A DNA stretch of 64,000 bases from positions 20,112 to 84,111 of the IMG/VR virus record IMGVR_UViG_3300037384_000074; one strand, 5' to 3'. This DNA comes from a virus. Its lineage: Duplodnaviria; Heunggongvirae; Uroviricota; Caudoviricetes. Under the pieces are notes generated by a model that was not told the origin of the DNA, did no database searches, and worked only from the letters and a program-made list of their open reading frames with translations. The position numbers and the translations under genes were made by a program. Positions within the stretch are counted from its first letter, which is position 1, and each line of letters starts with the position of its first letter. This document shows positions 10,363 to 63,361 of this stretch, one piece after another.

Positions 10363-10731
10363 GTGTCAACTGATGACGAAGAAGAAACAAATGTCTACCA
10401 GTTCCCTGATTTGCTAACAGAAGAGCGCAAATTTAACGCAAATTCGGCCAGGAATTTTCTGGAAATGACTAAGAAGGAATTTGTCGAAGAGGCGGCAGAT
10501 TCGATCTACGAGGAAACAATCCATCATCTCAAACAGTTTGGATTTTATAACGGCATCGGCAAGTACGACGGACGTGATCTGCACTTGATCAAAGAGATGT
10601 TAACTAGTATTATGTATCGTCATTATGGCTTCGAGCATTTCTTGCATAACATCGTTGAACAGCTTATGCCATACGAACTTGAAGATTCCGAAAAAACTGA
10701 GCCTGAGCCTGAGCCTGCTCTACAAGATTGA
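10363..10731 (+). CDS. acidic hypothetical protein
   Basis: GTG start with AAGAGG RBS; D/E-rich termini. Confidence 0.45.
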   Translation: MSTDDEEETNVYQFPDLLTEERKFNANSARNFLEMTKKEFVEEAADSIYEETIHHLKQFGFYNGIGKYDGRDLHLIKEMLTSIMYRHYGFEHFLHNIVEQLMPYELEDSEKTEPEPEPALQD

Positions 10732-10740
10732 GAATATCAT

Positions 10741-14901: not shown

Positions 14902-14920
14902 CAATTAAGCTAAATAGAGG

Positions 14921-21757: not shown

Positions 21758-22093
21758 ATGATTTACCGTGATAACTGCTTTTCGCCCGCAGATTGGAACA
21801 AGCTGAAGCTTGAGCTTGAGGTTGAATACTCTGAAATTCGACTCGATGTCTTTGATCTCTGCGCAGTTGACACTCTTACTCTCGATTATGAGACGTACAG
21901 CCTCTGGGTACATACCTGGAAGAGTGTTTACAGTGCCCTATCGGATATGATCCGTGAACTCAAGGAAGAGCAGGAATTCCACTACGTCAACAAGTATGCA
22001 AAGCTAGTGAACACTCTGCTGAATGCTCGAGCTTTTGCCAAACAGGAGCATCGGAAGCGTGTCAAGCCACTTATTGAAGACGATCAGTCGTAA
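21758..22093 (+). CDS. hypothetical protein
   Basis: 111-aa ORF. Confidence 0.4.
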   Translation: MIYRDNCFSPADWNKLKLELEVEYSEIRLDVFDLCAVDTLTLDYETYSLWVHTWKSVYSALSDMIRELKEEQEFHYVNKYAKLVNTLLNARAFAKQEHRKRVKPLIEDDQS

Positions 22094-22961
22094 AGAACTG
22101 GCTGTAACTAAGGGTCAGAAGTGGATCGCTGATAGCCTTCAATATGAAGTAATCATGGGTTCAACTGCCTATGGCGTATCAACGGACACTTCTGACCTCG
22201 ATATCTATGGTTGGTGTATCCCACCTAAATCGTTTGTCTTCCCTCATACAGAGGGTTATATTGACGGTTTAGGCCCTTCACCTCCTAGATTTGAACAGTT
22301 TTCACAGCACCATGTGAAAACTGCACGTCACGAGTACGATTTCACAATCTATAACCTCGTCAAATACGTTCAGTTAGTCGCTGAAAACAATCCAAACATG
22401 ATTGATTCACTGTTTGTACCTCCAAACTGTGTCACACATATTACCGAAGTTGGCAATATGTTGCGTGATCGACGTAAAGATCTCCTACACAAGGGATCGT
22501 GGCACAAGTTCAAAGGATATGCTTACTCTCAGATTCACAAGATCAAGAACAAGGAATTCAACCCTAATTGGACAACGAAGCGTAAAGACCGAATCCAAGA
22601 AATTGGCTTCGACAGCAAGCAGTCATACCACGCTGTCCGTTTGATCGACGAAGCCGAGCAGATCCTGCTTCACGGTGACATTGACCTACAGAGAAATCGT
22701 GAGCACTACAAGGCTATTCGTCGCGGTGATCTGACTTTCGACCAGGTTGCTGAATACTTCTTCAACAAAGAACGCGACCTCGAGAAAGTGTATCTCGAGT
22801 GTAAACTGCCTCATGGTCCCAATTGGCCCATGATTAATGGACTAGTTTATGATATTTTGGAACAGTTTTACGGGTCTATTTCTGAAGTACCGAGGCATAA
22901 TGATGTCTCATTACTTCTAAATGATCTAGAGAAACTATTCCATAGGTATAAACAAGCATGA
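22023..22961 (+). CDS. nucleotidyltransferase, pol-beta superfamily
   Basis: GSTAYGVSTDTSDLDIYGW is the GS-x(n)-DxD signature. Start uncertain (ATG 22023 overlaps the upstream ORF). Confidence 0.5.
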   Translation: MLELLPNRSIGSVSSHLLKTISRKELAVTKGQKWIADSLQYEVIMGSTAYGVSTDTSDLDIYGWCIPPKSFVFPHTEGYIDGLGPSPPRFEQFSQHHVKTARHEYDFTIYNLVKYVQLVAENNPNMIDSLFVPPNCVTHITEVGNMLRDRRKDLLHKGSWHKFKGYAYSQIHKIKNKEFNPNWTTKRKDRIQEIGFDSKQSYHAVRLIDEAEQILLHGDIDLQRNREHYKAIRRGDLTFDQVAEYFFNKERDLEKVYLECKLPHGPNWPMINGLVYDILEQFYGSISEVPRHNDVSLLLNDLEKLFHRYKQA

Positions 22962-23740
22962 AATATCTAGACGCTGTTGTATTAATTCTTCTGTCAGTAT
23001 TCGTCTATGCGGCAATGACAGACAGTAATTGGTACGAGTTTCGACACAATATTCTTGGTGAAAACCCGAGAAGTATTGCAGAAAATGTTGAATCTACTAC
23101 TGAGATATTGGTAATCAACTCTGAAAACCCTAAAGAGATGGGATCTGGTACGGGAGTGCTAATTAACTCACGTCAGATCCTGTCTGCTGCCCACATATTT
23201 GACCCCAAGTGGAATAATCCTACTATCAAAGTCAAGGTATTAGGTGAAGATATTGTAGCTAAAGTTGACAACGTTTTCATTGAAAACGGAGAGGATCTAG
23301 CGGTACTAACGCTTGAAAAGGCAGTACCGCTAGATCCTATATCTATTGATTGCACTCCATTGCAATATTCTGCTGAAGATGTATACACTATTGGTTCGCC
23401 ATATGGTACTGAAAAGTTAATCCGGTTCGGCAATATTGCGAGATTGAGCCCAACTTTATACAAACGAGCTTGGCAACAGGATAAAACTGAAGAAGAAAAA
23501 CTTGAGTGGAAGAAGAATCATAAATCACTCAACACGATTGATATGACAGCTTTTCCTGGTAATTCCGGCGGTCCTGTCTTCAATAAGCGCAATAATATGA
23601 TTGGGATAGTCAGTAGTATCATGACTGTTATAAATTTAAATGGGCGTGGATACGAAAATAACCATTATACATTCACTATTAAGCCGGAATTAGTGTGTCA
23701 AGTTCTCACTGATGGCAAATATAAATTCATGAAAGCATAA
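22958..23740 (+). CDS. trypsin-like serine protease (S1 family) with N-terminal signal/TM
   Basis: Catalytic triad contexts ILSAAHI (His), GEDLAVLTL (Asp), FPGNSGGPVF (Ser, GDSGGP-like); hydrophobic N-terminus. Confidence 0.7.
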   Translation: MKYLDAVVLILLSVFVYAAMTDSNWYEFRHNILGENPRSIAENVESTTEILVINSENPKEMGSGTGVLINSRQILSAAHIFDPKWNNPTIKVKVLGEDIVAKVDNVFIENGEDLAVLTLEKAVPLDPISIDCTPLQYSAEDVYTIGSPYGTEKLIRFGNIARLSPTLYKRAWQQDKTEEEKLEWKKNHKSLNTIDMTAFPGNSGGPVFNKRNNMIGIVSSIMTVINLNGRGYENNHYTFTIKPELVCQVLTDGKYKFMKA

Positions 23741-23741
23741 T

Positions 23742-24638
23742 ATGACAACAATTAGTGCCAAATCGGTACAGTCGTCTCGCGGTCTATCAACGGGCGAAAC
23801 TGTCCATTCAATTGAGGCTAGATATCCTCGATTTATCCACGCAGAAGTAATGACTCATCGCGATTTCTCGCGAAATGCAGCTAGCTCTCGAGCTATTCCG
23901 ATCCTTAAAATGATCAAGGATATCATCAAGGATCCGGCAGTCCCACTGCACCTTGGAGCCGCCCAGAAGGGAATGCAGGCAGATGTTGAGCTGACAGGAT
24001 GGCGCCGTTGGCTTGTTCGGACTGCTTGGCTTACTGCAATGTGGTTCGTAATTGTACTAGCTTTGATTGCATACGCAGCCGGTGCTCATAAGCAAGTTGT
24101 AAATCGAATGCTGGAGCCTTGGTCGCATATCACAGTAATCATTACCTCTTCGAGTTGGAATAACTTCTTCCATCTAAGGCGTCATCGAGATGCTGAGCCG
24201 CATATTCATATGCTCGCCGATAGGATTTACGAAGCAATCCAGAACGCTGATGTGTATACTATTGGTGATGGTGAATGGCACGTGCCATACGTAGATCGCG
24301 CTGTTGACATGTATAGTAAAACCGTGTATTCAGTGCGAGATGAGACTGGCAATGTTATCGTCTTGAGTCTAGACGAAGCTCTGATTGTATCAGCAGCACG
24401 TTGTGCATCAACATCTTATCGAACTGTTGACGGTAAGATCATGAGCTATGAACGCGCCAAGATTGTAGCTGACAAACTCGTTAAGGCAGACGTTCTACAC
24501 GCTTCACCTTTCGAACATCAGTGCACTCCTGATCGTAAGGGTCCAGGTGATCAGTGGGATAATCCTAGACTGCACGGCAATCTACGTGGTTTCAAGCAGG
24601 CTCGTAAGCTATATCCAAACGAATCTGTACCGGGATAA
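23742..24638 (+). CDS. thyX: flavin-dependent thymidylate synthase ThyX (motif variant THR for RHR)
   Basis: FIHAEVMTHRDFSRNAASSRA aligns with the ThyX signature F.H..vRHR..S....S.R. No ThyA-type motifs. Confidence 0.65.
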   Translation: MTTISAKSVQSSRGLSTGETVHSIEARYPRFIHAEVMTHRDFSRNAASSRAIPILKMIKDIIKDPAVPLHLGAAQKGMQADVELTGWRRWLVRTAWLTAMWFVIVLALIAYAAGAHKQVVNRMLEPWSHITVIITSSSWNNFFHLRRHRDAEPHIHMLADRIYEAIQNADVYTIGDGEWHVPYVDRAVDMYSKTVYSVRDETGNVIVLSLDEALIVSAARCASTSYRTVDGKIMSYERAKIVADKLVKADVLHASPFEHQCTPDRKGPGDQWDNPRLHGNLRGFKQARKLYPNESVPG

Positions 24639-24693
24639 TGTGTTGACTTGTAACATAAACATCGTATAATTTCGATAATAATGGAGATGTGAT

Positions 24694-25977
24694 ATGCGTG
24701 TTTATGAAGTTGGCGGCAAAGTTAGAGACTCTATATTGGGGATGGCATCAAATGACATTGATTATGTCATTGTTGGAGGCACCCATGAAGAGATGATTGC
24801 TGCCGGTTATAAGCAGGTTGGGGTCGATTTTCCAGTCTACATTGATGAAAAGGGTATCGAGCATGCTTTCGCTCGCACTGAGCGAAAGACTGGTGATGGA
24901 TACACGAGTTTCACTGTATCGACTCTGAATGTCACACTCGAAGAAGATCTTGCCCGCCGCGACCTCACTATCAACGCCATGGCGCAGCGAGCGAGATCTC
25001 ACCCACTCGATGATGGGTCCGACGATGGATATGACCATCATTGGATGGATACTGCCGCGGTAATCGATCCTTATAAGGGTCGTCGTGATCTCGACACTTG
25101 TGTGATTCGGCACGTGACAGACGCCGGGTTTGTTGAAGATCCTGTCCGAATCTTGCGAGTTGCGCGATTTTTGGCACGATTCCCCACGTTTGATGTCCAT
25201 CCTGACACCTTCAAGTTGATCAAGAAAATGGTCGACGACGGGATGGTTCATCATCTTGTACCTGATCGAGTCGCGCTAGAGCTCAAGAAGGCTCTATCAT
25301 CATCGGTTCCTTCTAGGTTCTTCTACTTCCTTCAAATGGTAGGGGCACTGGAAATACTGTTTCCTGAACTCCACGCTTTGATCGGAAAAACTCAGCCTTC
25401 TCGTCATCATCCTGAAGGGGATGCGTTCGTTCATACGATGCTCGTCCTCGAAGAGAGTGCAAATCGATCCGACATCATGTATCGTTGGGCAGCTCTCGTG
25501 CATGATCTTGGGAAGGGGACTTCTGATATAGCGAATCTCCCTCATCATTATGGGCATGAAGATCGTGGGCCTGCTCTTGTAGAGAAGATGGTTAAGCGTC
25601 TCAACCTGTCGAATGACTTCTTGAAGGTCGGGCAGTTTGTGGCGAAGTATCATACTCATGTTCATCGTGTCTTTGTGATGAAGGCTAGCACTATTGCCAA
25701 TATCGCAGAGCTCTCGGTCGTTCGAGATCGAAAGATGATAGAGTATCTGTGCATCACATCTAGCAACGATGCACGTGGGCGTGGGCCATACTATGCGCGC
25801 GTATCGTATCCAAATTGCGCTGCAATGTCCTCTGCTTTGCACGCTGCAGTAGATATCAACCTACGAGATGTAATGACTGAGGAAGAGATTGAAAAGGCTT
25901 CGATCGATAAGCGGAAACAAGTTCTGTTTCGAGCTCGAACCAACGCTGTCAGTAATGCACTCGCAAGATTCAAGTAG
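24694..25977 (+). CDS. cca: CCA-adding tRNA nucleotidyltransferase with HD phosphohydrolase domain
   Basis: Head MRVYEVGGKVRDSILG...DIDYVIVGG (GGxVRD, DxD) and HD domain HHPEGDAFVHTMLVLE...HDLGK; 427 aa, as in class II bacterial CCA enzymes. Confidence 0.8.
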   Translation: MRVYEVGGKVRDSILGMASNDIDYVIVGGTHEEMIAAGYKQVGVDFPVYIDEKGIEHAFARTERKTGDGYTSFTVSTLNVTLEEDLARRDLTINAMAQRARSHPLDDGSDDGYDHHWMDTAAVIDPYKGRRDLDTCVIRHVTDAGFVEDPVRILRVARFLARFPTFDVHPDTFKLIKKMVDDGMVHHLVPDRVALELKKALSSSVPSRFFYFLQMVGALEILFPELHALIGKTQPSRHHPEGDAFVHTMLVLEESANRSDIMYRWAALVHDLGKGTSDIANLPHHYGHEDRGPALVEKMVKRLNLSNDFLKVGQFVAKYHTHVHRVFVMKASTIANIAELSVVRDRKMIEYLCITSSNDARGRGPYYARVSYPNCAAMSSALHAAVDINLRDVMTEEEIEKASIDKRKQVLFRARTNAVSNALARFK

Positions 25978-25985
25978 GATTTACA

Positions 25986-26666
25986 TTGGACTATAATTTC
26001 CCAATCATTGCCAATTATGATGCTATCAAGTTTGCTCTAGAAGGCCCAGGTAGTGATGACTTTGTAGAGGTCGTAAAAGGCTCCTACAAAGTCATCAACT
26101 ACATTAAGATCTCTTCGGACACATTTCGACCAATTAATGTCGAAGGTATTGGTCACGAAGAACGTCAGAGACGTATCATTCGCCGCGAATTCCGTGGCTT
26201 GATCTTTGATGATAAGTCCGGTGATCTAATTCGTCGACCATATTCCAAGTTTTTCAACTTGAATGAACGTGAAGAAACGTTGAAGGAAACGATTGACTTC
26301 AATCAGCCTCATGATATTCTTCAAAAACTCGACGGGAGTATGGTGGCACCCTTCATCACAAGTGATGGAGTACTCCGCTTTGGAACAAAGATGGGAGAGA
26401 CTGATATCTCTCAACAGGCTCTCGACTACTGTAAAAAAAACGATAAAGATCTCGATTTCATTCGTTGGGTAATTGAAGAGCTCGGAAGCACACCCATTTT
26501 TGAGTGGTGTTCTAGGGCAAATCGTGTAGTAATCGACTACCCTCAGCCGCGATTCGTGTTGACCGCTTGTCGTGATATAGTATCAGGGACTTACTGGAGT
26601 TTCGATGAAATGCATGCTACCTTTGGCATGCAAAATTTCGAAATCGTGGGACATTTTAAGGTATAA
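25986..26666 (+). CDS. rnlA: RNA ligase 1 (T4 RnlA-like), N-terminal part with adenylylation motif I
   Basis: LQKLDGSMV is the KxDGS motif I, at the position expected for Rnl1. Ends at an in-frame TAA (26664-26666). Confidence 0.7.
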   Translation: MDYNFPIIANYDAIKFALEGPGSDDFVEVVKGSYKVINYIKISSDTFRPINVEGIGHEERQRRIIRREFRGLIFDDKSGDLIRRPYSKFFNLNEREETLKETIDFNQPHDILQKLDGSMVAPFITSDGVLRFGTKMGETDISQQALDYCKKNDKDLDFIRWVIEELGSTPIFEWCSRANRVVIDYPQPRFVLTACRDIVSGTYWSFDEMHATFGMQNFEIVGHFKV

Positions 26667-26669
26667 TTA

Positions 26670-27215
26670 GTGAAAACTGATATTGATTCCTTGCTTCAGG
26701 TCATTGTGGACCTTGAAGGGCAAGAAGGTGTAGTCGTTCGCTTTAGTGACGGCCACATGACAAAAATCAAGAGCTCCATTTACGTCAATATCCATCGTGC
26801 TAAGGATAATCTCCTGTACGAACGTCACGTCATTGAGATGATTCTTAATGAAACAGTGGATGATGTGAAGGCATTCTTGCCTGATATTGACAAGCAGAAC
26901 CTAGATCAGTACCAAGATAATATCTCAAAGTGGATCGACTCCACAGTTGAGCGCCTGTATTTACTTTGCTATAAGCCAATGATTGAAGAGAAATACTCTC
27001 GTAAACAGTTTGCAATCAATGTATCTGCTCAGGCTAAACCATTCGATTCATTTCTGTTTAAGAATTATGAGCAGATTCAGGAAGCTGACCCCAGTATATA
27101 CCATGAGTTTCTTGTTGAAGGTGTGGAACAAGCTCTACTGAAAGCCTGTAGTTCTAACTCTAGCTTGACAACGTTCAAGTCTATCGCAAATATCCATTTC
27201 AATTGGAGTCTATAA
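26670..27215 (+). CDS. rnlA: RNA ligase 1, C-terminal part (motifs IV and V), same frame as the upstream part
   Basis: EGQEGVVVRF is motif IV and HMTKIKS is motif V. The spacing from motif I (~132 aa) equals that in T4 Rnl1. It is separated from the N-terminal part by a single TAA plus one codon. Confidence 0.65.
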   Translation: MKTDIDSLLQVIVDLEGQEGVVVRFSDGHMTKIKSSIYVNIHRAKDNLLYERHVIEMILNETVDDVKAFLPDIDKQNLDQYQDNISKWIDSTVERLYLLCYKPMIEEKYSRKQFAINVSAQAKPFDSFLFKNYEQIQEADPSIYHEFLVEGVEQALLKACSSNSSLTTFKSIANIHFNWSL

Positions 27216-27688
27216 TGCCTAATTGTGTGCTTTTGGTAGGTCTGCCATGTTCTGGCAAGACCACTTTTGTTCGGAATCACCCCGAATATTGTGACAATCG
27301 TCGTTATGAAATCCTGAGCAGCGACGATATTCTTGAAGAGATGGCTGAGATCCTTGGTAAGACATACAATGAAGCTTGGCCTGATTATTATGCGTGGGCC
27401 GATTTCCTTTTCTGGGAAAGGCTTGATAAGGCAATCGCTGATAAGCGTAATTTTATTGTCGATCGCACGAGTCTGACGGTCAATACACGTCGTAAGATCC
27501 TCAGTAGAGTTCCTAAATCCTACAAGAAAATCGCTATCGATTTTAAGCCAAACCCGACTGTGACTAACAAGCGGAACGTTCGGCCTGGAAAGATTATCCC
27601 TAATGGGACTCTTTGGTCCATGCTTTGCGCTTATGAAATGCCCTCCTTCTTTGAAGGCTTTGATGATATTGAGCAGCGCCATGTTTGA
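27215..27688 (+). CDS. polynucleotide 5'-kinase, P-loop kinase domain only (T4 Pnk-like, no phosphatase domain)
   Basis: CVLLVGLPCSGKTTFVRNHP vs T4 Pnk IILTIGCPGSGKSTWAREF. 157 aa equals the T4 Pnk kinase domain. TAATG overlap with rnlA. Confidence 0.65.
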   Translation: MPNCVLLVGLPCSGKTTFVRNHPEYCDNRRYEILSSDDILEEMAEILGKTYNEAWPDYYAWADFLFWERLDKAIADKRNFIVDRTSLTVNTRRKILSRVPKSYKKIAIDFKPNPTVTNKRNVRPGKIIPNGTLWSMLCAYEMPSFFEGFDDIEQRHV

Positions 27689-27790
27689 AGCTCACGTAAT
27701 TAATGGAATTAAATTCGTATATCGTGTTACTATTAATGGCAATACCAACCGTAGGATTGAGTTGGTTGCTACATACCCAGATTGGAATGA

Positions 27791-28831
27791 TTGATGAGTG
27801 GTTTACAGAAGAAACAGATCAGCAAGCTAGTTGCTGACCGAGTAAAGTATTGGGCATTCTCTTTCAAGGATGCCAAGAACTTCAAGGACGGAAAGATTCT
27901 TGAACTAGAGAACTTTGAAGAGCCGACCGACGACGATAAGTCCAAGATTCGAGATTTCCAGCAGAGTATTATCCATAACACTGTAGTTACTGGCGGTGCG
28001 ATCGCCTCAATGCTTCTAGGAGAAGAAGTTAACGATCTCGACATCTATTTTAAGGATCGTGAAATCGCCAAGAAGGTTGCTCATTATTACATCAACACTA
28101 TGAAGGAAAAGCTTGGTACAACCAATCAGGTTTCACGTGTCGAAGTTATGGACAACACAACTGGAGGCGTTGATATCGTCATCAAGTCCATGGGTGTCGT
28201 ATCCGACGATAGCGGTGGTACTGGCGACTATGATTACTTCGAGGGTCGTACGGAAAACGATGTCAACGAATTCTTTAACAAATATAAGAAGGTTGCTGGT
28301 AAGAATGACGAGGGTCCGAAGCATGCGGTCTCATTCATCTCGTCTAACGCAATCACACTGAAGAACGATATCCAGATTATTCTACGATTCTGTGGCGATC
28401 CAAGTGAGATCCATAAGAACTTCGACTTCGCACATTGTACGAATTATTGGACTAGCCACACTGGCACAGTATATAATGAGGAAGCTCTGTCAGCACTGTT
28501 GGAAAGGCGGCTATATTACATTGGCTCACGTTACCCTGTAGCATCTCTGTTCCGAATTCGTAAGTTTGTTGAGCGTGGATATAGAATTTCTGGTGGAGAG
28601 ATCCTCAAGATTGCATATGACGTATCCAAGTTGGACTTAGATGAGGCGCATACACTCAAAGATCAGCTTTGTGGTATGGATCTAGCATTTTTCTCACAGG
28701 TCATTTCAATGCTCAATAACCGCGAACCTGGAACAACAATAGATAGGACATATCTTTTTAACGTCGTGGATCGGATATTCAAACTCGGAGAGACTGATGC
28801 TGATAATGGCATGGAACTTCATAACGACTGA
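27791..28831 (+). CDS. nucleotidyltransferase, CCA/poly(A)-polymerase head-like (pol-beta superfamily)
   Basis: VVTGGAIASMLLGEEVNDLDIYF resembles the class II CCA/PAP head (GGxxxxxLLGxxxxDxDI). Confidence 0.45.
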   Translation: MMSGLQKKQISKLVADRVKYWAFSFKDAKNFKDGKILELENFEEPTDDDKSKIRDFQQSIIHNTVVTGGAIASMLLGEEVNDLDIYFKDREIAKKVAHYYINTMKEKLGTTNQVSRVEVMDNTTGGVDIVIKSMGVVSDDSGGTGDYDYFEGRTENDVNEFFNKYKKVAGKNDEGPKHAVSFISSNAITLKNDIQIILRFCGDPSEIHKNFDFAHCTNYWTSHTGTVYNEEALSALLERRLYYIGSRYPVASLFRIRKFVERGYRISGGEILKIAYDVSKLDLDEAHTLKDQLCGMDLAFFSQVISMLNNREPGTTIDRTYLFNVVDRIFKLGETDADNGMELHND

Positions 28832-28878
28832 CCATTCCACACTATTGTGCTATATGGAGCAGTAAAGAATCGGAAACG

Positions 28879-29508
28879 TTGATGTGTAATGTAATGTGTA
28901 ACGATTGCGTCCTAAATCAAAACGCAAAGATCGTGTATGAGATTCATGTTACAGTTGATAGTTCTAGTCTATGTGACCTAGATATTCAGTGGTTTCAAAG
29001 GATGTGTTCAGCATGGGGAATCAAAGGTATCGTAATCGAAAACCTTAGTCCATCTGGAGAAGTCTCCGTCGATGTGATGACATCAAGCGTCGTTAAGACA
29101 ACATACCTTGATGCCTTTAATGAAATGAATGAGATTGCATCTGAGCTAACAGCGTTAGATTTTGATGTTATCAGGCGTAAAATTGAGACTGTTTCCTGGA
29201 ATTTCCCCGATAATCCGGACCAAAAGGGATATTTCGAAACACACATCGAATTCGACGTTGCTGACATCGATCATTTCAGTGTACTAGTGCGGCAGTTGGG
29301 TGGATATGTCAGTAGAAATGCGAATAAGCCTGGAAAGGCTATCGCTACTCTACGTAGAAATGCCCGCTCGTGGTTCCTATATGGCTACGATCTAGGTCCA
29401 TTTGTGGATGGGATTGAGTCGGCAGGATACGTAGCAAACAAAACACTTAATGAGTATTGTCCGTACGATGACAATCCAACTCATGATGATTCGTGGATTA
29501 AAGGGTAA
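28879..29508 (+). CDS. hypothetical protein
   Basis: 209-aa ORF inside the tRNA-repair cluster. Confidence 0.45.
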   Translation: MMCNVMCNDCVLNQNAKIVYEIHVTVDSSSLCDLDIQWFQRMCSAWGIKGIVIENLSPSGEVSVDVMTSSVVKTTYLDAFNEMNEIASELTALDFDVIRRKIETVSWNFPDNPDQKGYFETHIEFDVADIDHFSVLVRQLGGYVSRNANKPGKAIATLRRNARSWFLYGYDLGPFVDGIESAGYVANKTLNEYCPYDDNPTHDDSWIKG

Positions 29509-29512
29509 TATT

Positions 29513-29965
29513 ATGTCTCTATTCGAGAAGATTAAGAAAGATTATTACCGAACTCGCCTCGCTAAGGAAACAATCAGAATCAACCTATTGTCAACTCTGA
29601 TTGGCGATCTCGAGAGCTCTGCTAAGTTCGTTGATGGCAAGAAAGTTGTTGACGATCAGGCTGTAATCGGTATGATCAAAAAGTACCTCAAGAATAATGA
29701 AATCATTCTCGAGGCAGTTAAGCGAGTACCAGGTCGTTCTCCTGAAGAGGTGACCGCGCAGAGTGAATCAATCTATCGCACAACGAAGGAAATCGAAGTG
29801 TTGAACAGTTTTCTTCCTCAGCAGTTGTCTGAACAAGAGCTCAAAGATATCCTGAAGACTCTTTCGCAGCGGCCTGATTTCCCAAACTGGATGAAGTTCT
29901 TGAAGGCGAACTTCGCTGGACTGTATGATGGCAAGGTTGCTGCAGAAATCTTCAAGAATGCCTGA
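29513..29965 (+). CDS. GatB/YqeY-domain protein
   Basis: MSLFEKIKKDYYRTRLAKETIRINLLSTLIGDLES resembles the YqeY N-terminus (MSL...LRLSTLR). ATG 29513 follows the upstream stop. Confidence 0.5.
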   Translation: MSLFEKIKKDYYRTRLAKETIRINLLSTLIGDLESSAKFVDGKKVVDDQAVIGMIKKYLKNNEIILEAVKRVPGRSPEEVTAQSESIYRTTKEIEVLNSFLPQQLSEQELKDILKTLSQRPDFPNWMKFLKANFAGLYDGKVAAEIFKNA

Positions 29966-30041
29966 ATGGTCAGCCATAGACACAAATCTAGGCACATCTC
30001 CTATGATGCCAACTGATCCAACATTTAATTGGAGAGAATTT

Positions 30042-31133
30042 ATGCTTGAAACTATTGACGTTATCGAACACGTTGCAATGGATGTTGATATGACTGGCGG
30101 ACGAGCGCTAGCCACCGTCCGTCGCATTTCTGCACTAGATCCGATTCCAAACGCAGATCGGATCGAGCTTGCTACCGTCGATGGTTGGCAGGTTGTTGTC
30201 GCCAAGAATGTTGGTCATAAGGTAGGCGATCTTATCATTTATTTTGAAATCGACTCATTTTTGCCAATTGAGCCACAGTATGAGTTTCTTCGCAAGGGAT
30301 GTTACACCAAGAATACTGTTTACGGTGAAGGGTTCCGCCTCAAGACGATCCGCCTTCGCGGTGCCCTAAGTCAAGGGCTCATTATGCCTATGAGTGATAT
30401 GTATAGCTCTCTGCTTGGGTCTAATGATTTTTACGAAGGACAGGACGTTACCGAAATCCTCGGCGTCAAGAAGTATGAGAAGCCTCTTCCTGCATCTCTT
30501 GGGGGCATTGCTCGCGGCAATTTCCCGAGTTTCATCCCGAAGACTGATGAGGATCGTATCCAGAACTGCTTCGGTCGTCTGAAGCATAAGGTTCCAGACC
30601 AGCTCTACGAGGCTACAATCAAGCTTGATGGTACATCATTCACGGCGTATTATCATCGTGAGACTGATCGTTTCGGTGTCTGTTCGCGTAACCTCGATCT
30701 AGAGGAAACGGAAGGTAACCTATATTGGCAGATCGCTCGCCAGTTCAATATCGAAGATATTCTTTGCAATGCTGTCAGTGGATCTTTCGCCATTCAGGGT
30801 GAAATTATCGGCTCGGGTGTCAACGGCAACTGGGAAGGAATTGGTCACAACGAGCTTTATATTTTCAATGTATGGGACATTGAAAATCAGAAGTATCTTG
30901 ATTCCGAAGAGCGAATCGCTTTTGTCCAGGATATGGCTGGTCTCAAGAACGCGCCTGTAGTTGGCTATTATCGGTTCAGTGAATTTGATAGTGTCAATGA
31001 CTTCCTCCAGTTTGCTGATGGTCCTTCTATCTATAATGATCAGCGTGAAGGTGTTGTTTTCAAGGGTGTTGACGATCCTTCGATCAGTTTTAAAGTTATT
31101 AGCAACGCCTGGTTGATTTCATCTGGAGAATAA
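30042..31133 (+). CDS. ATP-dependent RNA ligase with N-terminal tRNA-binding OB domain (Myf/Trbp111-like)
   Basis: N-terminal IPNADRIELATVDGWQVVVAKN resembles the tRNA_bind domain (hPnADkL...VD.G...iV.ga.N); IKLDGTSFTAYY is the KxDG nucleotidyltransferase motif I; GGAGAG RBS. Confidence 0.6.
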   Translation: MLETIDVIEHVAMDVDMTGGRALATVRRISALDPIPNADRIELATVDGWQVVVAKNVGHKVGDLIIYFEIDSFLPIEPQYEFLRKGCYTKNTVYGEGFRLKTIRLRGALSQGLIMPMSDMYSSLLGSNDFYEGQDVTEILGVKKYEKPLPASLGGIARGNFPSFIPKTDEDRIQNCFGRLKHKVPDQLYEATIKLDGTSFTAYYHRETDRFGVCSRNLDLEETEGNLYWQIARQFNIEDILCNAVSGSFAIQGEIIGSGVNGNWEGIGHNELYIFNVWDIENQKYLDSEERIAFVQDMAGLKNAPVVGYYRFSEFDSVNDFLQFADGPSIYNDQREGVVFKGVDDPSISFKVISNAWLISSGE

Positions 31134-49596: not shown

Positions 49597-49680
49597 ACTA
49601 GGTATGCAGAATGGGGCTGCCGGCTGCTCATAACGGTCTCCCGCAAGGGCGAGTAGGTTCGATTCCTACACCTAGTACCA
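49597..49680 (+). tRNA. tRNA-like gene, anticodon CAU (Met or Ile-lysidine), encoded CCA, atypical long variable arm
   Basis: 7-bp acceptor stem ACTAGGT/ACCTAGT; D arm GCAG-aatgggg-CTGC; anticodon loop CUCAUAA; T arm GTAGG-TTCGATT-CCTAC; discriminator A then CCA. A 14-nt variable arm and A at position 8 are atypical. Confidence 0.5.
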
Positions 49681-52486: not shown

Positions 52487-52885
52487 ATGTCCATGTCATT
52501 CATCGGCGCAAAGCGTTCCTCGAACAATAACCTTGTTCCTGTCTATGACCTTGTGAAGATCCTCAACGAACGGATCTATGGAGATCCTCTTGATGTCGAG
52601 GACATGGGTGAACCCAATCCTTACTACGAGCCTGATGCTGATTTCAATGTAGCTAGCGGAAATGCTAAGTGGATCATCGAAGATCTCCTCGGTTACAAGA
52701 TCGAGGATGGCTACGTTGAGATGGAGATCGAAGATCTCGAGAGGAGAATCGTTGAAGCTTCTTCGAAGCTATCGAGCAGAAAATATTATTCGGAACGTAA
52801 TTATGCTATGAGCTTCTTCGTCCGGACGAAGAAGCTCATCGACTTCTCCCAGGCACGTGGTGCCACACATATCTATGGAGCCTAA
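52487..52885 (+). CDS. hypothetical protein
   Basis: 132-aa ORF. Confidence 0.45.
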   Translation: MSMSFIGAKRSSNNNLVPVYDLVKILNERIYGDPLDVEDMGEPNPYYEPDADFNVASGNAKWIIEDLLGYKIEDGYVEMEIEDLERRIVEASSKLSSRKYYSERNYAMSFFVRTKKLIDFSQARGATHIYGA

Positions 52886-57835: not shown

Positions 57836-58042
57836 TTGGCCGGATTTAACAAGAACTTTAGTGTTGACGAACGTGTTAAAATCGTCAACACTAATGAATT
57901 ACTTGATGGAACGACTGGAACCATTCTGGGCCAGTCGACAACCGGCGTTATAAACAACGCATACATTGTGTTGTTGGACGTCCCTCTTACAACTCATAAG
58001 GCAATTACAATGCCTGAAAGCCTACTGGAAAGAATTCCATGA
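57836..58042 (+). CDS. hypothetical protein
   Basis: 68-aa ORF. Confidence 0.35.
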   Translation: MAGFNKNFSVDERVKIVNTNELLDGTTGTILGQSTTGVINNAYIVLLDVPLTTHKAITMPESLLERIP

Positions 58043-58680
58043 AAACATTTCGCCTGACTGCCGCAATTCGTGACGAAATCATCGAGGATATGATCAGTCA
58101 TCGATACCTTGAAGAATGTCATGAGCACATCATGCATATGAAGTGCTTTGCTGAAGCCGTGTATGAGGATATTTATTCCGAGAAGACTCGTGCTGAATTT
58201 GAAGCTCTTCCGAAGGGCTGGCTGCCTGAGTCAACGATGATCAAGGTTATTTTCGGCAATAGTCACGCTGAACTCAATTTCAATGGTCTATTCGAAACCC
58301 GTTATTCGAATCAGGAATTTAGCTTCCTGAAAGATTTCGACACTAAGGTTTACCAGCCAATTTCGAAGAGACTTCCTGATAAGGATAAGGGGAGTTGGAT
58401 CAAGCGGTATGAAGCCAACTCGTCAATGGCGATCGAGTATGACCAGTTGATCAATGACCGTAAGACAATCATTGCCGAGATGAAGGATTCGAAAACAAAG
58501 CTCGGAGGAGTCCTAAATAGCTTCTCTTCTTCTGGACCTCTGGTCGAATCCTGGCCTGAAATTGCTCCTTTCCTGAAGAAGTTCATTAAGGAGCCGGCTC
58601 CTCTTCCTGCAATCCCAGTCGAGTCGTTTAACGCCACATTCAAGCTTCCTATCACGACCGAAAATAAAATCGCAGCCTGA
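58039..58680 (+). CDS. hypothetical protein
   Basis: 213-aa ORF, ATGA overlap. Confidence 0.5.
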   Translation: MKTFRLTAAIRDEIIEDMISHRYLEECHEHIMHMKCFAEAVYEDIYSEKTRAEFEALPKGWLPESTMIKVIFGNSHAELNFNGLFETRYSNQEFSFLKDFDTKVYQPISKRLPDKDKGSWIKRYEANSSMAIEYDQLINDRKTIIAEMKDSKTKLGGVLNSFSSSGPLVESWPEIAPFLKKFIKEPAPLPAIPVESFNATFKLPITTENKIAA

Positions 58681-59114
58681 ATAAAAATCTCAAATAACAG
58701 TTGTCTGCGAGAAGCGAATATCGGATAAAGATCTTGTTGAGATTGGTTGCCACGAGCAACCGCACTTGAGAGCGAAAGCAATCAAACAGCAGGAGGTTAT
58801 CATGTAGCAATCTGGATTTTTATCTTTTGGAAACAGTTGAAAAAGTTTAGATTAGATGTGATAAAGATATAGACGATGCTAACAAGCTTAGTCTACCGTC
58901 CAGGTGCTAGCGGGTGGATAATACCCCTGGGTAATACGTCCTAGTCTTAGTGGCGTGACAGTCCGGAGAGTGGTTCAAGTGAACGGACAAGGAATGCAGA
59001 ATTCCTGAACATTAAACGCTTGATATTCTATCTGCATTGGGGTATCAAGACGGAAGCCTGATTGCGACGAACGGGTTTAATTAAAAGATTGAGGTGTTGC
59101 AATCGCACCTCTTT

Positions 59115-59353
59115 CTCTCTAATTAGATGGGTAGAGATAGGAAGAATGAATGATTGCAATCATTCATATCTTCTGACAAGATCAGTAAAATGCAGTGAAA
59201 GTCTAGGGATCCCGCTTGACCGTTGTGTGGGACAAGGCAAGTATCTGATAGTGTTTGGTTCAGCGATATCGAGATGACTCAGTAAAATGGTCCTGTTTGG
59301 TCATCACGCTTAAGACCAGCCGAAAGATCTTCTCTACCTTTCTAATTAGAGAG
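59115..59353. repeat. 239-bp element bounded by 23-bp terminal inverted repeats (21/23 match) inside the ORF-poor region
   Basis: CTCTCTAATTAGATGGGTAGAGA at 59115 and its reverse complement TCTCTACCTTTCTAATTAGAGAG at 59331; an internal 10-bp-stem hairpin ATGAATGATTgcAATCATTCAT; an 11-nt direct repeat CAGTAAAATG. Confidence 0.4.
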
Positions 59354-60552
59354 GCGAGTATTTAGTGAAGCAGAGGGCTATTAGGTATAGATCTCCCACG
59401 CATGCAGGAGGTCGAGAAGGGTACAACGACACCGTCCCTTACCTGAGTTGCTATTGCGGGGACAAACGGCACTCGATGATTCTAGATCAATTCGATGCCT
59501 CTGTTTCACTAAGTATTTGTTGACTTTATACGCCTGTAGATTGAATATCTACGTGCACAGTAGTAAACGGATGTGTGGTGGACCACAGGGCCCTCTGAAA
59601 AGGGCCCGTTCTGGGTTCGATTCCTGGCTCTGGTTTGATCTACAGGCGTATAAAGTCAAGCTGTTTGAAATGTGAATTAGAACTTCTGAACTGAGCTTTG
59701 ATGGTATATCACCTTATGGGAGAATGGCCCATGGGTAGATATTCGGGAACAATCGTATGGAATGCTGCAACATTCCTATATAAACCCCGACCATTTGCAG
59801 ATGGCTCGCTTGAACTAGCGACGAGTCAAGGCTCTGTTCAGAAGTTCTTTAGTGTCATATTCGCAAATTATAGAATACAACGTTGAGTGTTGAATCAAGC
59901 GAAAGAACGGGTCGACCGATCAGGCAACTTCGTGGAAATAAATACACTAGCGGCGAGTTAGGCTACCTGAAAGCAATCCTCGTGTAACAGAGTTAGGGTG
60001 ATGTAAACTGTGGCAAGTAGTGAATTGGTCGAAATTCACGAAAGGATCATAGGCTAAGTTGGATAGTAGTCGAAGAGGTTCGGCCGAACTTTTAGGTGAA
60101 ATTTGGCGATGCAGCATGACAGGTCCAAAAATAAATCCTGCTGTGTAGGTGGAATCCCTACCCCTTACAGATTTGAATTGACTGAGTGACGGTTTCCAAG
60201 GTATGCGAAAGTAGGAGCGTCGTTTCACTCTGAGGATAGCAGAAAAAGGCGGGTAGAGCTTAATAGGCTCCTGTGGGGTTTGCCGCCAGGTATTAGTACG
60301 GAACGTGAGTTTGGCAGAAATGCCGGAAACGGAACTCTCTCCTGAAAGTTATCTGTCCACCGACAATACGAATTGGCTCTCTGGCGAAATGGTAGACGCA
60401 CCTCGCGAAGAGTTGATGGAAGTAGTAAGCGAAGGATATCATGTATTAGCTAGTGCATGATTTGAGAATGCGCTGCGAAACGGGATGCGAAGATTCTAGC
60501 TGGATAGAGGCGCCGCGATACCAGTGAGGAATAATAGCAGAACACCATTGTT

Positions 60553-60580
60553 CCAGGTTCGAGTCCTGGGAGGGCCACCA
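60553..60580 (+). other. tRNA-like 3' portion (T arm + acceptor 3' strand + CCA)
   Basis: CCAGG-TTCGAGT-CCTGG, then GAGGGCC-A-CCA. A possible 5' partner GGCTCTC sits 170 nt upstream at 60375. Confidence 0.35.
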
Positions 60581-60586
60581 AATTAG

Positions 60587-60614
60587 AACCCCGTTCCTTG
60601 ATTGGAACGGGGTT
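60587..60614 (+). terminator. hairpin, possible terminator before the tail fibre genes
   Basis: AACCCCGTTCC-ttgatt-GGAACGGGGTT, 11-bp stem. Confidence 0.4.
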
Positions 60615-60635
60615 CATTCGTTGATAAATAGGTTC

Positions 60636-62006
60636 ATGCAACCAACTCTCTCACTATATCTAAACACAAATGCCCCTGCTAAAAGAATTCAATTCTTAGG
60701 AGTTGACTTTACAGGATCTGTCGTTGAACTTGTTCTAACGAACCTAGTGACATCAGAGGAGATCACTCTTTCGACAGCAGATGATGAGATCTCAATTGAT
60801 CAAGACATTGTTGTTTGGGATTACGATCAAACAATTTTGGAACAGCTTCCGGTAGGAAATTGGACATCCTTTTCTGTGTATCGCAGTATTGGTGAAACGC
60901 GCGAATTCATTGGGTCCGGTCGCGTCTCCATAATTGCAAATGGTGGATACCAGGTCGACAACGGTACAATGGTTATCAACGTACCAGGTGTTAGAGGACC
61001 TGCTGGTACGCTTGAGGTTGATAGTGTTGTCACTCTCGATCCCGATGAAGATGCATATATTGAAGAGCTCGGTACCAACACTGAGTCCGCGTGGAGAGTA
61101 GGCATCCCTCGTGGATACACTGGGTTAACTCCAGATATAGAGATTTTATCAACCACAACTCTAGCTGCAGGACAGCCCGCCACGGTGACGCTCGATCCGA
61201 GCAGCACGCCGGAAGAGCCGAAGCTGGTGTTCGGGGTGCCGAAGGGCGACACGGGCGCGACGCCGGACATCTCGGTGCTCTCGACCGCCACGCTGGCGCC
61301 CAGCCAGCCCGCCACGGTGACGCTTGACCCGAGCAGCACGCCGGAAGAGCCGAAGCTGGTATTCGGCGTCCCGCGCGGTGACACGGGCGCGACGGGTCTG
61401 ACGCCTGCAATCTCGGTGCTCTCGACTTCTACCCTTGCGCCGGGATCGCAGGCAACCGTCGCGCTCGATCCCTCCAGCACCCCGGAAGCGCCTAAGCTCA
61501 ACTTCGGCGTCCCGCGCGGCGACACGGGAGACACGGGCGCCGCTGCGACGATCGTGATTGCTGGCACGGACACGCTTGCCCCCGGCGCGCCGGCAACCGT
61601 CGTTAATGAGGGCACGTCCGCAGCGGCAAGCCTGCGTGTTGGCATCCCTGCCGGCGTGCAGGGCCTGCCCGGCGCCCCCGGCGAGCCGCTGGCGCTGGTG
61701 GTGAGCGACACGACAGATATCGGCCTCGGTGGATGGTGGGTGGCGCGAGATTATCACGGTGCCGCCACCTGCGATTATCTCCGCGCGGAAATGCTGGTTG
61801 GTGAGGCCGACGCTGTGACGCTTGCCGTGCGGAAGAATGGCGCGACCGTCCGCAGTGGTATCGCACTCGGTGCCGGTGTGACTGTGATCACAGATCTTGG
61901 CCTTGTGCTCGCAGAAGGCGACCAAGTATCCGTACATCGCGTTGGCGGCGGTACGCTCACAGGACCATGGATGATGCTAGTTCAAATCGACGGAAGGACG
62001 CCCTGA
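60636..62006 (+). CDS. tail fibre-like structural protein with tandem 40-aa repeats and a short collagen-like stretch
   Basis: Three tandem copies of (L/P)xxISVLSTxTLAxxQPATVTLDPSSTPEEPKLVFGVPRGDTGxTG; GIPAGVQGLPGAPGEP; GC rises to about 68% within the gene. Confidence 0.6.
   Translation: MQPTLSLYLNTNAPAKRIQFLGVDFTGSVVELVLTNLVTSEEITLSTADDEISIDQDIVVWDYDQTILEQLPVGNWTSFSVYRSIGETREFIGSGRVSIIANGGYQVDNGTMVINVPGVRGPAGTLEVDSVVTLDPDEDAYIEELGTNTESAWRVGIPRGYTGLTPDIEILSTTTLAAGQPATVTLDPSSTPEEPKLVFGVPKGDTGATPDISVLSTATLAPSQPATVTLDPSSTPEEPKLVFGVPRGDTGATGLTPAISVLSTSTLAPGSQATVALDPSSTPEAPKLNFGVPRGDTGDTGAAATIVIAGTDTLAPGAPATVVNEGTSAAASLRVGIPAGVQGLPGAPGEPLALVVSDTTDIGLGGWWVARDYHGAATCDYLRAEMLVGEADAVTLAVRKNGATVRSGIALGAGVTVITDLGLVLAEGDQVSVHRVGGGTLTGPWMMLVQIDGRTP
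61131..61531 (+). repeat. tandem repeat, about 3 x 120-132 bp, inside the tail fibre gene
   Basis: ...GCCACGGTGACGCT(C/T)GA(T/C)CCGAGCAGCACGCCGGAAGAGCCGAAGCTGGT(G/A)TTCGG... is repeated. Confidence 0.7.
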
Positions 62007-63361
62007 TGCCTACGCTTACCTATGCCAATATCGGCAAGCTCCCGATCAAGCCGACGCTGCAAGATTTTTTCAGCAATGGTGAGGCTGGCGCCGCTTCAGC
62101 TTTTCCCGATTTGTCGTCGCTCTATCAGGACGCGGCAGGCACGGTGCCGGTGACGGCGATTGGTCAACAGGTCTACCGGGTCAACGACCTCAGCGGCCGC
62201 AACAATCACCTCTTGCAGGCGACGGCGCTTGCTCGCCCTCGGCTTGGGCGAACGCCGGCGGGTGGCGTACGGAATTTGCTTCAACAGACTGAAGCATTTG
62301 ACAATACCTTTTGGACAAAGACAAACGTGTCTGTAGCACCGAGCGCTACAGCTGCGCCTGATGGTGTATCCGCAGTATATGAAATAACGCCATCTGCTGT
62401 GCTTGGCTATGCTCATGGCGTCTCTGTAATCGTGGCACTTACCAGTGTAGCGTATACTGTTTCATGCTATGCAAAGGCAAATGAATACAATGTCCTCGTG
62501 TTTGTGCTTAACAATAGCTCAAGCACGAGTATAAGCTTCGACTTGAGCACTGGTGTTTTGGGGGCCAATCCACAAGGATATGGTTTTAGCATAGAAAATT
62601 CGGGCAACGGATGGTTTCGGTGTTCGTTCACATTTACGCCGGGCGCGGGAAACAATACCATCAGAATAATAGCCAGGAACGACAGCGTTGTCGCAAACTG
62701 GACGCCAGACGGTACATCCGGCATCTGCATCTGTGGCGCTCAACTCGAACTTGGCTCCACTGTCACCCCTTACCAGCGCGTCACAACACAATGGGACGTC
62801 ACCGAGGCCGGCAAGCGCGACTGCTATTGCCTCTATGGCGACGGCATCGACGACACGATGGCGACCGCTGGTGCCGTCCTGCCCGTGCGAAATGGCTTGT
62901 CGCTGATTGGCGCCTTTAACGCTGTCACACCGGGGGCGTCCTCCTCCTTCGCTACAACCTTTGGCCTCGTCTCGGGAGCGGTCGGGTTCACCCTCTTAAC
63001 CCGCAGACAGGCTGATTTCCGTCAGGTGGGCGCTTATGTGCGTGGTGCTGGTGGCGCAACTATCACGCCGATCACAAATCTTGGAAACGCAGGGTTTGAC
63101 TACGGGCGCCCATTCATAACGTCGGCGACGCAGAATGCTGATAATTTACAGGTGTTGTCGATTAACCCGGAAGGCAACGCTTCTGCGCCATCCGCGCTTG
63201 GCTTGACAACCACAGCGTTTCTTCCTCTGGGCGCTTTCATTGTGGCGGGCAATTCCCCGATTTTCTGGTATGGCGGGCTGGCAATTGATCGCCCGCTCAC
63301 TTCGCTGGAACGTGAAATTGCAATGGAGTACTACGCCTATATCTCAGGAGCAATCGAATGA
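62006..63361 (+). CDS. tail fibre-like structural protein
   Basis: TGATG overlap with the upstream gene. The N-terminal module LSSLYQDAAGTVPVTAIGQQV...HLLQATALARPRLGR is shared with the next gene. Confidence 0.55.
   Translation: MPTLTYANIGKLPIKPTLQDFFSNGEAGAASAFPDLSSLYQDAAGTVPVTAIGQQVYRVNDLSGRNNHLLQATALARPRLGRTPAGGVRNLLQQTEAFDNTFWTKTNVSVAPSATAAPDGVSAVYEITPSAVLGYAHGVSVIVALTSVAYTVSCYAKANEYNVLVFVLNNSSSTSISFDLSTGVLGANPQGYGFSIENSGNGWFRCSFTFTPGAGNNTIRIIARNDSVVANWTPDGTSGICICGAQLELGSTVTPYQRVTTQWDVTEAGKRDCYCLYGDGIDDTMATAGAVLPVRNGLSLIGAFNAVTPGASSSFATTFGLVSGAVGFTLLTRRQADFRQVGAYVRGAGGATITPITNLGNAGFDYGRPFITSATQNADNLQVLSINPEGNASAPSALGLTTTAFLPLGAFIVAGNSPIFWYGGLAIDRPLTSLEREIAMEYYAYISGAIE

Follow-up and report, generated by a model that had tools for sequence, protein, structure and literature searches.

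What function can be assigned to 1.9 kb of phage DNA that carries no gene? The question is raised by positions 58681-60635 of a 64,000-nt stretch (hereafter the window) of the IMG/VR virus record IMGVR_UViG_3300037384_000074, part of a 136-kb phage contig. The gene-free stretch lies between an Nmad5-domain gene and a tail protein gene and has the same direction as all neighbouring genes. A first-pass annotation, made from the letters of the DNA, had named four candidates for it: structured non-coding RNAs, a miniature inverted-repeat element, a degraded tRNA cluster, and an origin or packaging region. The first of these is supported here by conservation, folding, and RNA-type substitutions. 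The stretch is probably the locus of a large, multi-domain, structured non-coding RNA made from the + strand of a T4-like phage, and this large structured RNA locus is previously uncatalogued. Its anatomy is likely to comprise a ~1.15-kb conserved core (58701-59848), a hypervariable spacer of 0.5-0.65 kb, a 209-nt unit derived from tRNA-Leu, and a terminator (Table 1).

Coding capacity was examined in all six frames (651 codons each). Every frame contained 24-52 stops of all three kinds, and recoding of a stop codon is therefore excluded. No open reading frame (ORF) exceeded 93 aa, as had been stated before; the longest one lying fully within the stretch is at 59947-60228 on the - strand. The stretch was compared with its counterpart in a related contig, L129 (see below), which had 29-54 stops in every frame. 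Substitutions within the conserved blocks showed no 3-periodicity (p = 0.35-0.77), and the indels there were 1, 2, 7, and 14 nt long, i.e. not multiples of three. A gene missed through recoding or frameshifting was ruled out by the stops, the missing periodicity, the indel sizes, and the gene-free relative. The idea of a non-coding region was to be abandoned if relatives encoded ordinary proteins at this place, and L129 is likewise gene-free.

The relative was found when the Nmad5 protein was searched exhaustively with phmmer in 1.84 billion cluster representatives; one protein was returned (P0002, 50% identity). It is carried by L129 (4951 bp, Logan SRR25435845) and by L130, which is shorter and identical. 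The layout of L129 is the same as in the window: three small genes, Nmad5, ~2.07 kb without a called gene, and a homologue of the tail protein (ATG at 3662). Between the window and L129, Nmad5 is 48% identical as protein and 66-67% as DNA. The proportion of differing synonymous sites (pS) was 0.79 in Nmad5, 0.67-0.74 in the two small genes upstream of it, and 0.55-0.58 in the tail gene, so neutral sites are at or near saturation on both sides of the gene-free stretch. The stretch itself alternates between three conserved blocks (I-III) and two hypervariable segments (V1 and V2), for which no match between the two contigs was obtained by sensitive blastn or tblastx. The conserved blocks evolve ~5-8 times slower than the adjacent synonymous sites. 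Since 85-100% identical blocks stand beside saturated synonymous sites, the comparison shows a non-coding sequence under strong, block-wise purifying selection.

Other searches returned no further relatives. INPHARED blastn gave no DNA match to any phage, a k-mer search with Nmad5 found the gene itself only, and a search with the N-terminus of the tail protein found nothing. The same was true of IMG/VR scans with Nmad5 or P0002 and of a JGI metagenome scan with P0002. No comparable region was present in the Nmad5 neighbourhood of Pam3 or in 50 kb of Rhizobium phage RHph_I1_18, and the exact pattern of the tRNA-like ends gave 0 matches. Ultra-conserved 17-20-mers had chance matches only in metagenome, viral, and genome collections from which the source contig is absent. 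In Rfam 15, the whole window had no match at gathering score, GOLLD and ROOL included, and relaxed scans (E<=10) of the region and of L129 gave chance-level matches to unrelated families only.

The core is predicted to fold into a 5' domain followed by four tandem, stem-closed domains (A-D) that are 0-19 nt apart and have closing stems of 18-27 bp. The 239-bp unit bounded by 23-nt inverted repeats, described earlier, is present (91% complementary arms); it had been overlooked that this unit is the first of four adjacent ones. The closing repeats of the others are 18 nt in B (59359-59376/59498-59515, both mismatches being G.U), 22 nt and perfect in C (59520-59541/59638-59659), and 23 nt in D (59679-59701/59826-59848). 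These are the sole inverted repeats in the window that are >=22 nt long and >=91% complementary with arms 90-200 nt apart, and two perfect repeats of the same type were found in 1.17 Mb of other phage tRNA-region DNA. The predicted free energy of 59100-59870 was -298 kcal/mol (z = -12.8 against dinucleotide shuffles), and z was -3.7 for the 5' part (58681-59115). When z was computed for sliding 200-nt segments, the values were noisy (mean -1.0, sd 1.75) and informative only at the extreme, 59501-59700. GNRA hairpins were only ~2-fold enriched, which is weak, and GGA was not enriched in a check for a CsrA-type sponge.

To score the helices in the relative, the centroid structure was predicted from the window alone, and its 329 testable pairs in the conserved blocks were followed in L129. 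Most pairs were unchanged (281/329); 23 had changed on one side and 4 on both sides with pairing kept, and 21 were broken. Thus, pairing was kept in 27 of the 48 changed pairs. In shuffles that reassigned the 3' partners within the same pair type, 0.6 double changes (P about 0.0015) and 27.2 +/- 1.3 broken pairs were expected, and 0 of 2000 shuffles had as few broken pairs. Most breaks are in weak helices or inside domain C, where two folds, the energy-minimum one and a tRNA-like one, compete. In the closing stem of domain B, 6 pairs had changed and 5 were still paired, including two double changes, U.G to A-U (59361/59513) and U-A to C-G (59366/59508). The closing stem of domain A had 1 change in 21 pairs and that of domain D none in 23, and a further double compensatory change (C-G to U-A, 59744/59789) lies within domain D. 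L129 has 14 extra nt at one place in this domain, inserted exactly in the loop (59811-59816) of a hairpin (59806-59821). All 117 pairs of the 5' domain in the RNAalifold consensus were kept in L129, 8 of them with one-sided changes. In block II, 168 pairs were compatible with both sequences, 4 with double changes, and 16 additional pair types were counted in register vs. 2-5 when the partners were slid by 1-3 columns. By this comparison, the predicted helices are maintained through RNA-type substitutions, and the covariation is modest but consistent.

The same helices were asked which strand they serve. The consensus fold of block II was -190 kcal/mol on the + strand vs. -157 kcal/mol on the - strand, one-sided G.U-mediated changes numbered 13 vs. 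3, pairs involving G.U 22 vs. 10, and where the closing stems depart from Watson-Crick pairing, they have G.U on the + strand. This asymmetry and the terminator placed behind the CCA (see below) point to a + strand RNA as the functional molecule. The long repeats might instead work as DNA, forming cruciforms or protein sites of an origin, a packaging site, or a recombination hotspot at the border of replication and tail genes. That the stretch lies at a module boundary would suit such a role, as would the near-invariance of stems A, C, and D (2 changes in 70 pairs) and a - strand that also folds far better than shuffles (z = -9.7). The 22 consensus pairs with G.U on the + strand would, however, turn into A.C on the opposite strand, the runs with the highest conservation (58896-58977 and 59428-59503) are mostly outside the long repeats, and a tRNA-like unit with CCA and a terminator is sensible only as RNA. 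No iterons or direct repeats beyond chance were found, and the cumulative GC skew does not turn here. A DNA-level element is thus quite unlikely, and the earlier suggestion of an origin or packaging region was not borne out, since direct repeats and a skew switch are missing and the strand-asymmetric changes fit RNA.

The 239-bp unit of domain A had been considered a possible miniature inverted-repeat element. Its terminal inverted repeats are real (23-nt arms 59115-59137/59331-59353). No target-site duplication, extra copies, or presence/absence polymorphism was found in the 64 kb searched of the 136-kb genome; the arms of the domains are unrelated, and domain B, the sole domain searched by a covariance model, had no second copy in the window and matched only itself in ~1 Mb of phage loci. 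Comparison with related phages had been proposed as a way of finding insertion polymorphism of the unit, and none was seen: the arms are at the same place in L129, and the interior alone is replaced. V1 is exactly the interior of domain A, and L129 has a different, hairpin-forming interior of 174 nt within the same stem. With the arms kept and the interior replaced, the domain is read as a variable tip on a conserved helix. An 11-mer (UCAGUAAAAUG) occurs twice in V1 on the + strand (59182-59192 and 59279-59289); it is not conserved in L129, and a scan for the doubled pattern elsewhere matched only unrelated coding repeats.

Stacked elements of this kind, a decaying tRNA cluster, or both could also have left the whole stretch as neutral remains. 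Two T-arm motifs, tRNA-Leu- and tRNA-Phe-like pieces, and units bounded by inverted repeats are what such remains would contain, yet 85-100% identical blocks amid saturated synonymous sites are not. A very recent transfer might explain the identity, but V1 and V2, which lie within the block and cannot be aligned, speak against it. The arms of the four units have no resemblance to each other and lack target duplications, no other copy of domain B was found, the units are 0-19 nt apart, and L129 has replaced only the interior between the same arms at the same site. The tRNA-derived pieces evolve 5-8 times slower than synonymous sites and are hence maintained, not decaying as a degraded cluster would be. 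Neutral remains are hardly credible as an explanation.

The hairpin and T-arm motif noticed earlier at 59588-59627 is present in domain C. At default settings, ARAGORN called a tRNA-Phe at 59565-59636, for which the Rfam tRNA model reported nothing at gathering score or E<=10. In addition to the T arm (59611-59627, T loop UUCGAUU), the element has one hairpin that contains GG and another in the place of the anticodon arm. The stem of the T arm has changed from U.G to U-A and from G.U to A-U in L129 with an identical loop, and the closing helix of the domain, which is perfect, is unchanged. The hairpin at the anticodon position has changed from GGGCCCU/AGGGCCC to GCCCC/GGGGC, and its loop, CUGAAAA, is not kept. 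Of the called tRNA-Phe, the T arm alone is conserved. A tRNA-Phe gene was rejected, as the anticodon loop is unconserved and neither ARAGORN nor Rfam found a tRNA in L129. Judged by its sequence features, domain C is a tRNA-like structural module.

Every piece named earlier for the 3' unit is present: the T arm, acceptor strand, and CCA (ACCA, 60553-60583), GGCTCTC at 60375, and the D-arm-like sequence, which is of the tRNA-Leu type. Conservation with L129 resumes <=2 nt from 60375 and continues through the insert (~85-90%), the CCA, and the terminator. Like tRNA-Leu (RF00005), the unit has a 7-bp acceptor stem, a D arm (UGGCGAAAUGGUAGACGC; canonical AAAUUGG in L129), a canonical T arm with its T loop, A14/A15, G18G19, A20a, A73, and CCA, and the same 17-nt D arm is found in ordinary phage tRNA-Leu genes. 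The acceptor, D arm, and T arm with the conserved loop residues are conserved in L129. Unlike tRNA-Leu, it lacks the anticodon arm and its 7-nt loop; their place is taken by ~112 conserved nt that are not tRNA sequence, and the Rfam tRNA model reported nothing at gathering score or E<=10. On these features, the 3' unit is a tRNA-Leu-derived element that is not able to decode. Bacterial leucyl-tRNA synthetase (LeuRS) does not read the anticodon; its recognition elements are A73, A15, G18G19, A20a, and the D/T-loop elbow, and tRNA-Leu variants without anticodon and variable arms are still charged (PMC9976931). All of these E. coli-type elements are present, and leucylation of the 3' unit by LeuRS is therefore plausible.

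Two foldings of the middle of the unit are conserved in L129. In the first, CCUCG/UGAGG occupies the position of the anticodon stem and carries the 112-nt insert; in the second, a mini-hairpin is followed by a long domain closed by GAUGG/CCAUU before the T arm. The first folding would be that of a genuine tRNA gene interrupted by an intron of ~112 nt, perhaps spliced by the phage RNA ligases: ARAGORN with introns allowed drew a cloverleaf at 60375-60580 that has a class-II variable arm and holds 112 nt in its anticodon loop, the stem is conserved, and ligases of the Rnl1 and Rnl2 types are encoded. This explanation, which concerns the 3' unit only, is unlikely. No consistent anticodon loop is obtained (the options are ACC, AAC, or AAG with G33), and the second helix closes the insert like an enlarged variable arm. 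An insert of 112 nt is far under group I size, and models of group I and group II catalytic cores had no match in the region; the same scan found a group I intron in another phage locus (L035), i.e. the method works. The predicted anticodons of 44 similar genes (see below) scatter, so the middle is not an interrupted anticodon arm.

A transfer-messenger RNA (tmRNA) was also considered for the 3' unit. At a lowered threshold, ARAGORN proposed one at 60266-60580 with the tag APREELMEVVSEGYHVLASA; at the default threshold, none was found in the window or L129. Acceptor pairs 3 and 4 are C-G and U.G, and the resume codon it would use shares bases with the D stem. The 20-codon tag frame is open in L129 too, as read from the alignment, and its 3 amino-acid vs. 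2 silent changes give no sign of purifying selection. The tmRNA reading was judged unlikely because of the missing G3.U70, the full D arm, and the silent Rfam tmRNA models.

The 17-nt D-arm sequence of the 3' unit was found in >119 IMG/VR contigs. About 45 matches are ordinary tRNA genes, mostly tRNA-Leu, and ~15 were judged by eye as chance matches in GC-rich coding DNA. Another ~45 have the acceptor/D/T frame and A73 with 41-148 nt between the D and T arms, not 31-36 (e.g. L057 6630-6827, L106 8523-8717, L017 644-812 and 876-1010, and L010 5482-5581, among loci L010-L128). Many of these tRNA-Leu-like genes share the acceptor AGUCAGG/CCUGACU; their inserts are often weakly structured and have no shared sequence. 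ARAGORN skipped them by default, and with introns allowed, the anticodons assigned to 44 of them spread over nearly all amino acids, which indicates that there is no real anticodon loop. Rfam aligned the longest members as full-length tRNAs with the insert replacing the anticodon arm, and some passed the threshold. As in the 3' unit, a helix (GAUGG/CCAUC) often closes before the T arm. The 3' unit has the longest insert (153 nt between the arms) and ends a 1.7-kb structured region with no true tRNA nearby, whereas the other genes are in tRNA arrays, and none of the gene-free flanks checked exceeded ~0.9 kb. No description of such genes was found in the literature searched. They keep exactly the features required by LeuRS, a hint that phages put tRNA charging to a use other than decoding. 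Passed over or mislabelled by standard tRNA finders, these genes may be a class of non-decoding, possibly chargeable tRNA mimics.

An ordinary tRNA-Leu with the same D arm was seen at 9226-9306 of a distant 126-kb phage contig (L031), which is syntenic with window positions 5448-11595 (five genes, 27-42% protein identity). It lies between homologues of the window genes 8085-9065 and 9077-10351; these are directly adjacent in the window, without the tRNA-Leu. ARAGORN also called an 84-nt tRNA-Met (CAU) at 49597-49680 on the + strand, with an A1-U72 start, an encoded CCA, and a 14-nt variable arm (hairpin CCC-GCAA-GGG). This class-II-like shape is unusual for a CAU tRNA, and the gene was absent from the matches of the Rfam tRNA model when the whole window was scanned at gathering score.

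The ends of the predicted RNA were sought on the + strand. Similarity to L129 begins at a promoter-like site (58701-58729), and the 20 nt between it and the Nmad5 stop are not conserved. The site fits 8/12 consensus positions and was not listed by the promoter scan; its spacer has 5 substitutions in L129. It is a possible start of the RNA and a candidate promoter. No signal of T4 late promoters (TATAAATA) was obtained. The terminator-like hairpin at the 3' end has a 12-bp perfect stem (pairing probability 1.0), and L129 has a 7-bp version followed by a U-richer tail. It is a far better candidate than the site at ~60077-60095 that had been called terminator-like (GTTCGG/CCGAAC and TTTT): the 12-nt palindrome exists there, but it was not listed by the terminator scan, and the segment is unconserved in L129. 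Near the 5' end (58793-58807, +), a perfect Shine-Dalgarno sequence (AGGAGG) is followed after 6 nt by ATG TAG (ATG TGA in L129) and is predicted to pair with the anti-Shine-Dalgarno-like ACCUCUU at 59105-59111. The stop is kept through two transitions, which is statistically unremarkable, as 3/4 of the possible outcomes are stops.

A very long untranslated region, either the 3' trailer of the Nmad5 operon or a regulatory 5' leader of the tail genes, is a very unlikely alternative to an independent RNA. The strong terminator hairpin (60586-60615) and the tRNA-like 3' end separate the stretch from the tail gene, its conservation exceeds that of the genes supposedly regulated, and its size (1.9 kb with a 1.15-kb core) is far above that of the structured RNA candidates surveyed in IMG/VR phages, which are only 29-151 nt (PMC10690425). 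On the other side stand the strand shared with both neighbours, the lack of a strong terminator right after Nmad5, and 34 nt at the 3' border, running up to and into the tail gene, that are 100% conserved in L129.

Table 1. Features of the gene-free stretch and related genes in the window; identities are to L129
Feature	Position	Strand	Identity	Description
RlaP-family nucleotidyltransferase	22023-22961	+		
CCA-adding enzyme	24694-25977	+		
Rnl1-type RNA ligase	25986-26666	+		
YqeY-like protein	29450-29965	+		
PHA02142/Rnl2-type RNA ligase	29925-31133	+		
Nmad5-domain gene	58039-58680	+		Directly 5' of the gene-free stretch
Promoter-like site	58701-58706, 58724-58729	+		TTGTCT, 17-nt spacer, GATAAA; both hexamers identical in L129
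5' domain	58701-59114	+		Multi-hairpin; AGGAGGU (58793-58799) pairs with ACCUCUU (59105-59111)
Block I	58701-59150		~88%	Identical runs of 82 nt (58896-58977) and 43 nt (58983-59025)
Domain A	59115-59353	+		Closing stem 59115-59137/59331-59353; hypervariable interior V1 (~59141-59325)
V1, as aligned	59151-59325		~40%	Unalignable
Block II	59325-59850		~90%	Identical run of 76 nt (59428-59503, domain B)
Domain B	59354-59520	+	96%	20-21-bp closing stem, three-way interior; most conserved domain
Domain C	59520-59659	+		22-27-bp perfect closing stem enclosing the tRNA-like module
Domain D	59679-59848	+		23-bp closing stem plus 10-bp extension, four hairpins within
V2	59849-60374	+		526 nt vs. 655 nt in L129; no mutual sequence similarity
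V2, as aligned	59850-60370		~40%	Unalignable
Block III	60371-60620		~85%	3' tRNA-like unit and terminator
3' unit	60375-60583	+		209 nt; acceptor GGCUCUC/GAGGGCC, class-II D arm GCGAAAUGGUAGACGC, T arm CCAGGUUCGAGUCCUGG, A73, encoded CCA
Intrinsic-terminator-like hairpin	60586-60615	+		GAACCCCGUUCC/GGAACGGGGUUC, 3 nt past the CCA
First tail protein gene	ATG at 60636	+		Directly 3' of the gene-free stretch

Nearly all genes of the window are on the + strand, including those for ribonucleotide reductase, DnaB helicase, and NAD ligase. A T4-like family B DNA polymerase is encoded (best match 47% identity, Rhizobium phage RHph_I1_18). Its gene (13372-15697, +) is apparently split: a 509-aa ORF matches the first ~490 of 856 profile positions and is followed by a separate 258-aa ORF. 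The genes for RNA repair and tRNA maturation clustered at 22023-31133 are possibly linked in function to the tRNA-like RNAs.

A search with tail protein 2 returned L009, a 10-kb IMG/VR contig that shares only a recombined tail module with the window. Positions 61386-62280, where tail protein 1 ends and tail protein 2 begins, match 5508-6402 of this otherwise unrelated contig with 92% DNA identity, which points to a recombining tail-fibre module. A stretch of 70% G+C in the tail gene (~61150-61750) coincides with ~47-aa tandem repeats (…TLDPSSTPEEPKLVFGVP(K/R)GDTG…). A perfect 32-bp palindrome with 16-nt arms and no spacer is at 52808-52839; its left arm holds the start of the Logan contig L001, two bases in, at 52810 of the window, and the first 28 nt of L129 are likewise self-complementary. 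Short-read assemblies of these phages are probably interrupted by such palindromes.

Several points weigh against a large structured RNA. The comparison includes two distinct sequences, the window and L129, so covariation is thin and many helices never vary, and the high conservation of the perfect 22-27-bp helices could reflect a constraint at the DNA level. With two sequences, the pair-type shuffle control of block II was weak (65/500). The 3' part together with V2 (59850-60640) folded no differently from shuffles (z = -0.4), and the 3' unit folded alone was no more stable than shuffles; in V2, the partition function gave an irregular long-range stem (59929-59981/60232-60302) with weak folding evidence, and V2 of L129 had z = -2.2. 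Given the 92% match of the tail segment, the block pattern could partly result from mosaic recombination. No known RNA family matches, so no function can be transferred, and the transcript ends, promoter, processing, and aminoacylation are inferred from sequence features.

If the locus is nevertheless a large structured RNA, as appears probable, the transcript would start near 58735 and end at the terminator (60615). Enzymes that act on tRNAs would recognise its 3' unit: cleavage by RNase P would occur at 60375, the CCA-adding enzyme of the phage would maintain the 3' end, and LeuRS might leucylate it. Helices of 20-27 bp are long enough to be RNase III substrates. Those of the core may thus be sites at which four stable domain RNAs of 140-240 nt are released; alternatively, they may be rigid struts of one ornate RNA. 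By analogy with GOLLD and ROOL (see below), the product is most likely a stable RNA scaffold or an RNA-protein particle during infection, rather than a regulator of neighbouring genes. More tentatively, the locus may be the first example of a new class of giant phage RNA, in which a core with a tRNA elbow is joined through a hypervariable spacer to an anticodon-less tRNA-Leu mimic charged with leucine by the host LeuRS. If so, large RNAs or particles would carry or regulate an aminoacylated tRNA-like handle, which could engage ribosomes, aminoacyl-transferases, or tRNA-targeting defence nucleases, and the tRNA-Leu-like genes of other phages that have non-tRNA middles would belong to a related, overlooked class of non-decoding, chargeable mimics.

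Among known systems, tmRNA resembles the 3' unit in that an acceptor/T-arm domain encloses a long insert, and differs from it in that the unit has no G3.U70, a full D arm, and no selected tag frame. The phage of the window is linked to T4 by its DNA polymerase, and T4 makes two small stable RNAs of unassigned function, C and D ("species 1 and 2"), which have tRNA-like 3' parts and mature along with the tRNAs. These are ~120-140 nt long and located inside a real tRNA cluster; they were set against the locus by description only. Large RNAs that form RNA-only cages and are encoded next to tRNA genes are known from phages and prophages as GOLLD and ROOL, likewise of unknown function; GOLLD has a conserved and a poorly conserved part, sometimes with tRNAs in the linker (PMC12286853). 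The locus is similar as a very large phage RNA of many helices, in which conserved and hypervariable parts alternate and tRNA-like modules are embedded. Membership in these families is excluded, because no Rfam covariance model matches. In contrast to them, the locus consists of tandem domains closed by near-perfect helices of 18-27 bp, and is larger (core ~1.15 kb, whole ~1.9-2.1 kb), and its tRNA-like parts, unlike the tRNAs of GOLLD, are not functional tRNAs. Very large structured RNAs other than rRNA are rare, and the locus would add an unrelated, larger example, from a lytic T4-like phage, beside GOLLD and ROOL, with a clear modular layout of conserved helix-closed domains, hypervariable inserts, and tRNA mimicry.

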